DNA of 64,000 bases, taken from Octopus vulgaris (lineage: Eukaryota). Below, one piece after another: positions 38,601-39,767 of the stretch. Both the position numbers and the translations under genes were made by a program. The notes under the pieces were generated by a model that saw only the letters and a program-made list of their open reading frames with translations, was not told the DNA's origin and searched no databases. Every line of letters begins with the position of its first letter. The stretch's first letter is position 1. The stretch is from NCBI GenBank assembly GCA_951406725.2, contig OX597840.1, positions 19,468,001-19,532,000 on the forward strand. Reading direction: 5' to 3'.

Positions 38601-38914
38601 ATATACATATATATGTAGGTATGTACATATATGTATATATGCATATATTTATGTATTATATATATATATATATATATATATATATATATATATATATATA
38701 TATATATATATATATATATATATATATATATATATATATATATATATATATATATATATATATATTAAGGACTGAACACGAAAAAGTGGACAGTCAACAT
38801 GCTAGATATAGACGTCAAATCGCCATTCTCCACAAAAAGTTTATGTTCTCAGATCAAACTCAACACAAAACCAAAACAATAAACAAGTGAAAAATATACG
38901 AAATAAATATTTAC

Positions 38915-38980
38915 CCATGTACTAAATTCAGTTTCGGCTGTTATTTTCCGCAAGGAAAAGTGCAGCCATCATCAGCATGG
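38915..38980 (-). ncRNA. Type I hammerhead ribozyme (mirror copy)
   Basis: Exact reverse complement of 39177-39242. Confidence 0.8.
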
Positions 38981-39176
38981 TCCCATATATTTGTTCTCTA
39001 ACCGATAAATTAACTGCTGCTAACTATTAGCTGCAGGCTAGTTTTCTCGGGTCTCATCGCGCCAAAATTAGAGACATTTGAAATATATATTTCAAATGTA
39101 ATAGGCCGTACTCCATGCACGCGATATTTCGGTATCGTGTTGGCATCTAGTCCAGCAAATTGCATTTTATATGGGA

Positions 39177-39242
39177 CCATGCTGATGATGGCTGCACTTT
39201 TCCTTGCGGAAAATAACAGCCGAAACTGAATTTAGTACATGG
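39177..39242 (+). ncRNA. Type I hammerhead ribozyme, canonical core
   Basis: ccatg-CTGATGA-t-ggctg..ttttcc ttgc ggaaaa..cagcc-GAAA-CTGAATTTAG-TA^catgg. Confidence 0.85.
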
Positions 39243-39767
39243 GTAAATATTTATTTCGTATATTTTTCACTTGTTTATTGTTTTGGTTTTGTGTTGAGTT
39301 TGATCTGAGAACATAGACTTTTTGTGGAGAATGGCGATTTGACGTCTATATCTAGCATGTTGACTGTCCACTTTTTCGTGTTCAGTCCTTAATTGGTATA
39401 TATAAATATTTTAATCTTCGGATTCTTTCTTTAATATGCTAGACCACTGGTTCTAATTGATAAATATCAATTTTTACCCTAAATTTAATGTTATATATAT
39501 ATATATATATATATATATATATATATATATATATATATATATATATATATATATATTCCTTCTTCCCTTCTTTCCTGAGCGTCCAATAATACTTTATTTG
39601 TTCCACATTCTTGCGTTGTTGTCTTTTTGTTTTCTTGTTTGGATTAACTTTATATATATATATATATATATATATATATATATATATATATATATATATA
39701 TCATACATACATATATACATACATATATATGTATATATATGTATGTATATATATATACATACATACA

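Follow-up and report, generated by a model that had tools for sequence, protein, structure and literature searches.

The window analysed here is a 64,000-nt stretch of the Octopus vulgaris contig OX597840.1, AT-rich and dense in microsatellites and in SINE-like repeats that we take to be octopus-like. By self-BLAST of the masked window and split alignment, we found that a fold-back layout is real at six of the nine named loci (D1, D2, C1, C2, F, and E1), the two arms being head-to-head and the tail lying on one side only in 6/6. A preliminary description had seen the same layout at E2 as well, which turned out to be an inversion lacking an inverted repeat (its best self-inverted score, 22, comes from the TA flank only), and had called G and H weak, as their arm identities of 45/61 and 45/56 bear out. 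One further copy, D3, was absent from that description and was found in a scan of 152 TA tracts. The sample amounts to nine copies in a single window, and the elements are flanked by microsatellite on both sides. The features are the following, with all hammerhead cut sites being predictions.

38766-38989 (-), short arm of D1, with a hammerhead core at 38975 and a cut after 38920
38990-39492 (+), long arm of D1, equal to one monomer of the ~512-nt family D unit
39083-39090 (+), third 8-nt TA run in unit D, an end site in 0/3 copies
39177-39242 (+), type I hammerhead of D1, with a palindromic-like stem III and a cut after 39237
39397-39409 (+), Z patch of D, with the TATATATA run, reading TATATAAATATTT; the site where D short arms end
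54188-54476, D2 fold-back from split alignment: short arm 54188-54277 (-), 16-nt spacer, long arm 54294-54476 (+)
10729-10977, D3: short arm of 14 nt at 10729-10742 (-), long arm 10743-10977 (+)
7043-7233, C1 fold-back: long arm 7043-7173 (-), 3-nt centre, short arm 7177-7233 (+); 62/63 identical
32421-32621, C2 fold-back: short arm 32421-32485 (-), long arm 32488-32621 (+); 65/65 identical
30908-31046 (-), C3, long arm with tail
53488-53912, E1 staggered fold-back: short arm (-) to 53700, long arm 53701-53912 (+) with a ~145-nt tail
32160-32352, E2 inversion without overlap: tail-only arm 32160-32305 (-), short arm 32306-32352 (+)
11093-11300 (-), E3, solo arm whose end is at the Z patch, with a hammerhead and a cut after 11139
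35961-36233, F fold-back: long arm 35961-36126 (-), 11-nt spacer, short arm 36138-36233 (+); 90/96 identical
37752-37980, G, old and probable fold-back; degenerate hammerhead on the minus strand, cut after 37888
40075-40210, H, weak inverted repeat
46185-46680 (+), element I, 5'-truncated C-terminus of a Penelope-like element (PLE) endonuclease with a hammerhead, cut after 46643
11976-12600 (+), 56815-57143 (-), and 33148-33231 (+), degraded PLE endonuclease remnants, from a profile
39769-39975 (+), 39557-39650 (+), 36278-36375 (-), and 51636-51852 (+), family K, a ~205-nt repeat with a loop-less minimal hammerhead, cut after 39876

The long arm of D1 runs from unit boundary to unit boundary and consists of a unique stretch of 178 nt (38990-39167), a part shared with the short arm (39168-39393), and a tail of ~99 nt. 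Split alignment gave 225/226 identical nucleotides over the shared part and a spacer of 178 nt, and the short arm merges into (TA)n about 4 nt before the Z patch. The C2 fold-back is perfect and centred on the palindrome AAGCTT, with a tail of ~69 nt and hammerheads on both arms (predicted cuts after 32444 and 32529); C1 has the same centre apart from a 3-nt difference, and its hammerhead lies on the short arm (predicted cut after 7216), as does that of F (predicted cut after 36196). The E1 arms are identical at 64/68 positions of their shared part and have a spacer of 141 nt, the length by which the short arm extends 5' of the long-arm start, through the hammerhead (predicted cut after 53553); aligned with the solo copy E3 in the orientation of the short arm, this spacer scores 76, against a null maximum of 37 in 200 shuffles. 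Both parts of E2 match E1 (scores of 130 and 52 against null maxima of 37 and 32, the P value of 0.005 being the floor for 200 shuffles), and the tail-only arm stops at the Z patch. The length of the D3 short arm is within the null, with seven real matches of 12 nt or more, one of them microsatellite, compared with four pooled null matches; the fold-back is supported by the end site common to family D and by a private variant present in both arms. No inverted arm was found beside C3, E3, family K, or element I, and a search for a partner arm or tandem unit beside E3 or C3 likewise found none (best P value 0.05).

Short arms are nested within the long arm in D1, D3, and G, staggered in E1, and non-overlapping in E2, and the C2 arms are symmetric about the central palindrome. 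The 16-nt spacer of D2 leans to the short-arm orientation (P value 0.054 against D3 and 0.33 against D1), and the firmly staggered copies are two only, E1 and E2. The notion that the spacer is always short-arm sequence was rejected, since in D1 it is long-arm sequence and the short arms of D3 and G are likewise nested. For D1, the orientation was read from public contig records 3, 4, 11, 12, and 13, which cross 39167/39168 with none of the five having the set 31 letters on both sides; joints between the tail and the start of the unit agree with it. Inner junctions differ among D1, D2, and D3, the outer ends of which are clustered. Microhomology had been named as a feature to look for at these junctions, and we observed 0-6 nt of it or a palindrome, with 3 nt (ATA) at D1 and the stem I hexamer at the junction of G. 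A MITE or foldback DNA transposon was also considered and rejected on the one-sided tail and on interiors that differ between D1, D2, and D3.

Over the shared core, the arms within one copy differ by 0-1 changes, compared with 3-4 between D1 and D2, 13-15 for D3, 4 between C1 and C2, and 7-9 in E, and private variants are common to both arms of one copy. As arms are alike within a copy and copies are unlike, both arms seem to come from one source or to have been homogenised later.

The outer ends of the short arms are clustered, not identical, and scatter over ~12 nt. In relation to the TATATATA run, the arm ends about 4 nt before it in D1, inside it in D2, and 1 nt before it in D3, and the ends of C1 and C2 are 3 nt apart. 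Under uniform ends, the chance of the clustering is 0.004 for D, 0.010 for E, and 0.067 for C, these being post hoc values for spans picked after inspection and that for E including E2 and the solo E3. The proposal that independent copies share the outer breakpoint of the short arm thus holds as clustering per family and not as one breakpoint, the D ends differing by several nucleotides and the C ends by three. That the breakpoint sits beside an internal TA patch is true of C2 and E1, where the Z patch is the sole alternating A/T run of 5 nt or more in the long arm, and of D, where it is one of two 8-nt TA runs; it does not extend to F, C1, and G, in which no alternating A/T run of 5 nt or more was found, the TA match of F being 3 nt only. 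The T site at the boundary of the D unit has the 13-mer of the Z patch, TATATAAATATTT, and both outer ends of D therefore lie at internal TA patches of the unit. With the third D run left unused and a match of only 3 nt in F, TA pairing is not the sole rule. In total, 19 of the 24 ends of 12 elements have a (TA)5+ tract no more than 15 nt away, compared with 6.5% for the background, a count in which the ends were partly set at tract edges and which should be read alongside the SINEs of the window, as they likewise abut (TA)n. The unused run at 39083-39090 lies upstream of the ribozyme, in the centre of a 26-nt perfect palindrome (39074-39099), around which other D subfamilies diverge in the contig alignment.

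A descriptor search built on the well-known hammerhead core identified type I motifs in families C, D, E, and F and, in degenerate form, in G; none was found by it in H. The D and F motifs have an extra nucleotide before stem II, and since hammerheads read away from the centre, the arms are head-to-head. The relaxed descriptor returned 11 distinct sites against a null mean of 0.67 and maximum of 2 in 30 shuffles, and the strict one 8 rows against a null mean of 0.1; these counts should be read knowing that the first descriptor missed D and E, that the relaxed versions were written after seeing those motifs, and that the last of them omits E1. Single-strand folding of seven hammerhead regions was significant for G only (z -2.18; D, z -1.73), and the assignment of the motifs therefore rests on the descriptor and the shuffles. 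Among the 150 Rfam rows listed, out of 490, there was no hammerhead family, all being sub-threshold microRNA models on hairpins and microsatellites. A degenerate hammerhead-like motif was also seen in an insert at 9824-10140 (-), with a predicted cut after 9942 and no inverted repeat found. The family K copies have a fixed 3' end running into (TA)n and a 5' end common to two copies, and the copy at 36278-36375 starts at the predicted ribozyme cut site.

To this we added public contigs aligned to 38990-39500, in total 1,309 and 1,129 records from two runs, with pieces of 68-120 nt shown; four of the 24 listed runs were aligned, and the best contig run may be the window's own source. Four joints connect the tail of family D to its start (39480/39497 to 38990-38992, with 4-20 letters between), at depths of 845.5, 59.4, 52.5, and 35.6 and with joints in both contig runs, and they define family D as a head-to-tail unit of ~512 nt. 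The earlier guess of a tandem or circular template thereby gained support for this family. The closed unit has a GC content of 0.34 (0.343) and a longest stop-free stretch of 73 codons. Judged by its sequence, family D would classify as a non-LTR retrozyme, as a head-to-tail unit with one type I hammerhead, non-coding and below the 45-50% GC bound of that class; families C, E, and F are probably of the same kind, with the tandem unit seen in D only. Family D is diverse, the 1,309 contig records falling into identity bands of 336, 507, 402, and 64. No strand-changing joint is listed among the 1,309 and 1,129 records over 38990-39500, which we read as neutral, given that repeats interrupt short contigs and that the stretch has the D1 junction at its edge.

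Some smaller observations concern the same units. Two raw-read runs gave 0 and 2 family D reads in about 3% of each run, a near absence although the family is abundant in contigs of the same species label, and a 27-nt family D pattern had 0 matches in metagenome contigs. An old isolated family D fragment, about 76% identical and without TA flanks, is found at 57906-57979 (-). The E1 short-arm start (53696-53700) and tail end (53907-53911) have 5 nt in common, as would be compatible with an E unit that closes at about 355 nt and a short-arm cDNA that stopped at T.

Element I sits between two (TA)n tracts and may be an example of the candidate helper type. Its peptide (46191-46379) has 575 relatives at E ≤ 0.001, and one of the eight inspected showed by eye an RT-like YRDD motif upstream of a weak GIY-YIG match that falls short of the cutoff, the single one given by Pfam across 20 relatives. 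An endonuclease profile computed from 122 of the 150 listed relatives matched 46185-46427, 11976-12363, 56815-57143, and 33148-33231, with domain E values below 1e-5. The profile had no match inside the C, D, and E units, and the only row touching F was non-significant (E 0.68). In 14 window peptides, Pfam found no GIY-YIG or RT match and a single zf-RVT domain, of LINE type, at 47618-47983; a word-index protein search with the element I peptide returned no match, and within the window no sequence match was found between families C to F and the PLE remnants. The stem III loop of element I is the same hexamer as in family F, and a degenerate hammerhead-like motif, noted by eye near 12526, comes after the first of the other remnants (11976-12600).

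The layout is one known from EN+ PLEs, the standard form of which has an inverted pLTR copy and an optional tail (PMC8557442, PMC3846280). The remark that inverted 5'-truncated segments are common in Penelope insertions is in line with the same sources; the layout, with its one-sided tail, was already published for PLEs. EN+ PLEs and the window copies have in common the head-to-head inverted 5'-truncated copy, the tail at one end, palindromes at some junctions, AT-rich or (TA)n targets, and a hammerhead in the repeat. The architecture is a known PLE signature and would not surprise a PLE specialist. The tails differ in length, being 30-40 nt in EN+ PLEs and about 70 nt (C, F), 99 nt (D), and 145 nt (E) here; unit D, unlike an EN+ PLE, has no RT or endonuclease ORF and at most 73 stop-free codons, and staggered arms are absent from the EN+ PLE descriptions compared. 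Family D appears to insert like a PLE yet, having no ORF, is not an autonomous one. In the twin-priming model of L1, both ends of a break prime. E2 resembles its outcome, a classical non-overlapping inversion in which the first cDNA stops at the second start; the other copies are unlike it in their long arm overlap (seven copies), fixed internal starts, and lack of poly(A).

The Poseidon PLE of Anolis carolinensis, studied in vitro, provides the closest view of priming: both strands of an AT-rich target are nicked and extended, the tail is delimited by two internal start sites, the RNA used as template is uncleaved, and a dimer is predicted (PMC11167929). Its starts lie in a stem-loop that is rich in AC and not homologous to the target, unlike the two D sites, which read TATATAAATATTT, and the sections of that paper compared do not discuss inverted arms, the word occurring once, for a blocked oligo. 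Given these lizard starts, the unused D run, and the 3-nt match in F, TA pairing may be incidental. Non-LTR retrozymes consist of type I hammerhead units in tandem, with expression as circles (PMC7229834), and a 2026 preprint argues that retrozymes are non-autonomous PLE derivatives (10.64898/2026.07.22.740005), the case for their mobilisation by PLEs being made from co-occurrence and pLTR similarity (PMC7229834, 10.64898/2026.07.22.740005). Unit D is like the metazoan non-LTR retrozymes in being non-coding and low in GC, with one type I hammerhead and a size within 51-972 bp. The portions of the two retrozyme texts compared discuss no inverted arms, and those of the preprint neither tails nor priming; unlike the retrozymes they describe, the dispersed copies here bear the PLE insertion footprint. 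In Schistosoma mansoni, dual minimal hammerheads lie on opposite strands 100-700 bp apart and, as here, have an extra nucleotide before stem II and a palindromic stem III; the relevant part of that paper mentions such pairs in passing as truncated PLEs, without arm geometry (PMC4209133). The repeat annotation of Octopus vulgaris lists active PLEs, and ribozymes are unmentioned in its main text (PMC13282606). In a literature search that covered few subscription journals or repeat databases, no paper came up in which twin priming was connected with PLE inversions or in which these families were described. What appears to be new is a retrozyme-like unit with a PLE footprint, longer tails, start patches resembling the target, and two staggered copies.

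Taken together, we consider it rather probable that a PLE-type enzyme uses both ends of the break for priming, at two internal sites of one source RNA, and that the 3' ends of the resulting cDNAs are joined. The RNA would come from a tandem source and have its hammerhead either uncleaved or ligated again, the unit and the motif being the parts visible in the DNA. A PLE RT-endonuclease, borrowed in trans, would nick both strands of (TA)n; one break end would then start at T and the other at Z, 70-145 nt upstream, where the ends are found, and the interval between Z and T would become the one-sided tail. The start sites are probably set by the protein with help from TA pairing. Both cDNAs would extend 5'-ward and end independently of each other, in some cases at a start patch, which may explain the positions seen in D1, at T after one full unit, and in E2, at Z. 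Arms would overlap where the same stretch was copied a second time, whether from a neighbouring tandem unit, round a circle, or through strand displacement on one RNA; a PLE RT without RNase H would let one RNA be copied twice. The cDNA ends would join by the 0-6 nt of microhomology or palindrome, and host repair would fill in. A tandem or circular RNA is the likely template. What the DNA shows directly is the unit structure of D, the motif, the end positions, the arm geometry, and the arm identity, from which we infer nothing firmer than a likely enzyme, RNA, TA pairing, and order of events.

Several elements of this account go back to the preliminary description. Its idea that both ends of a (TA)n break prime reverse transcription fits all copies and is the sole tested model to fit E1 and E2, with the correction that TA pairing is not the only rule. 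Priming at the RNA tail had to be given up, as the T start is not an RNA end: once the D unit is closed, it is another TATATAAATATTT patch in the interior, in agreement with the two internal starts of the lizard PLE (PMC11167929). Overlapping arms were said to need two RNAs or a tandem or circular template; a tandem or circle serves indeed, and one RNA copied twice would serve as well.

A less likely origin of the arms is self-priming by snap-back, in which a cDNA or antisense RNA folds at its 3' end and copies outward to the TA patch, the patch then annealing to the other (TA)n end; it may hold for some nested copies. Snap-back would explain near-identical arms and fits the nested D1, with its 3-nt ATA microhomology, D3, and G, with its stem I hexamer junction, equally well. 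Palindromes at inverted junctions have been taken as self-priming (PMC3846280), and at L1 breaks inverted duplications arise from 3' ends that annealed to themselves (10.1101/2024.12.14.628481). The model needs, however, a short arm wholly inside the long one. As the short arms of E1 and E2 reach 5' of the long arms, with 141 nt outside in E1 and no overlap in E2, they are not producible by snap-back copying; D2 leans the same way, and the loop-less centre of C2 would fit the annealing of two ends better than a hairpin.

The other explanations have less in their favour. That arms symmetric at first, or inserted separately, were trimmed later, by deletion between the TA patch and the flanking (TA)n, and homogenised by gene conversion is improbable: the ends do merge into an unstable microsatellite and scatter by several nucleotides, and inverted arms are able to convert each other, but none of the seven fold-backs (D1-3, C1-2, E1, and F) has both tails and none lacks both, all are head-to-head with no TA tract between the arms, the F arms retain 6 differences in 96 nt, and E2 is left unexplained. 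We think it very improbable that double priming took place on two RNAs from unrelated loci or was performed by a non-PLE enzyme, such as a microsatellite-targeting LINE. The spacer being long-arm sequence in some copies and short-arm sequence in others would agree with this, as would the LINE-type fragments of the window (zf-RVT) and the want of shown homology to a PLE partner; against it, the arms cluster by copy despite the diversity of the family, and a tail on one side only has been called unique to PLEs. An assembly or library fold-back artefact is hardly credible. The fold-backs are known from the assembly alone and the contig records list no strand-changing joint, yet the palindromes stop at element ends, the flanks differ, the arms carry 1-6 differences and are staggered, the ends recur by family, and the same layout has been published from other animals.

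Double priming at two internal sites, our preferred account, can be taken a step further, to a version that we hold tentatively and give a modest chance: the circular retrozyme RNA would itself be the direct template of a dimeric Penelope enzyme, with two RTs circling at once. Both cut (TA)n ends would pair with two UAUAUA patches of the circle, and the RTs would tend to stop at a start patch, after one turn in D1, at Z in E2, and possibly at T in E1. If true, this would explain the inverted-plus-tail structure of Penelope elements in general and would make the copies a direct genomic footprint of animal retrozymes moved by PLEs.

The origin of the head-to-head inverted ends of PLEs has been named as an open task (PMC8557442), and antisense self-priming has been proposed for PLE inversions (PMC3846280, Arkhipova et al. 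2013). The distinction between nested and staggered arms separates self-priming from double priming and is countable from an assembly, and the footprint would tie retrozymes to Penelope enzymes. As the outer ends and the inner junction are readable in short and abundant copies, both questions can be addressed by counting.

The window also contains longer tandem arrays, one at 20941-22146 with a period of 216 nt and 5.5 copies and one at 48749-49218 with two copies of about 233 nt, in neither of which the descriptor found a hammerhead. Partial tandem arrays of a SINE-like repeat, of period ~184 nt, lie at 5275-5877, 36885-37371, and 49592-49943.
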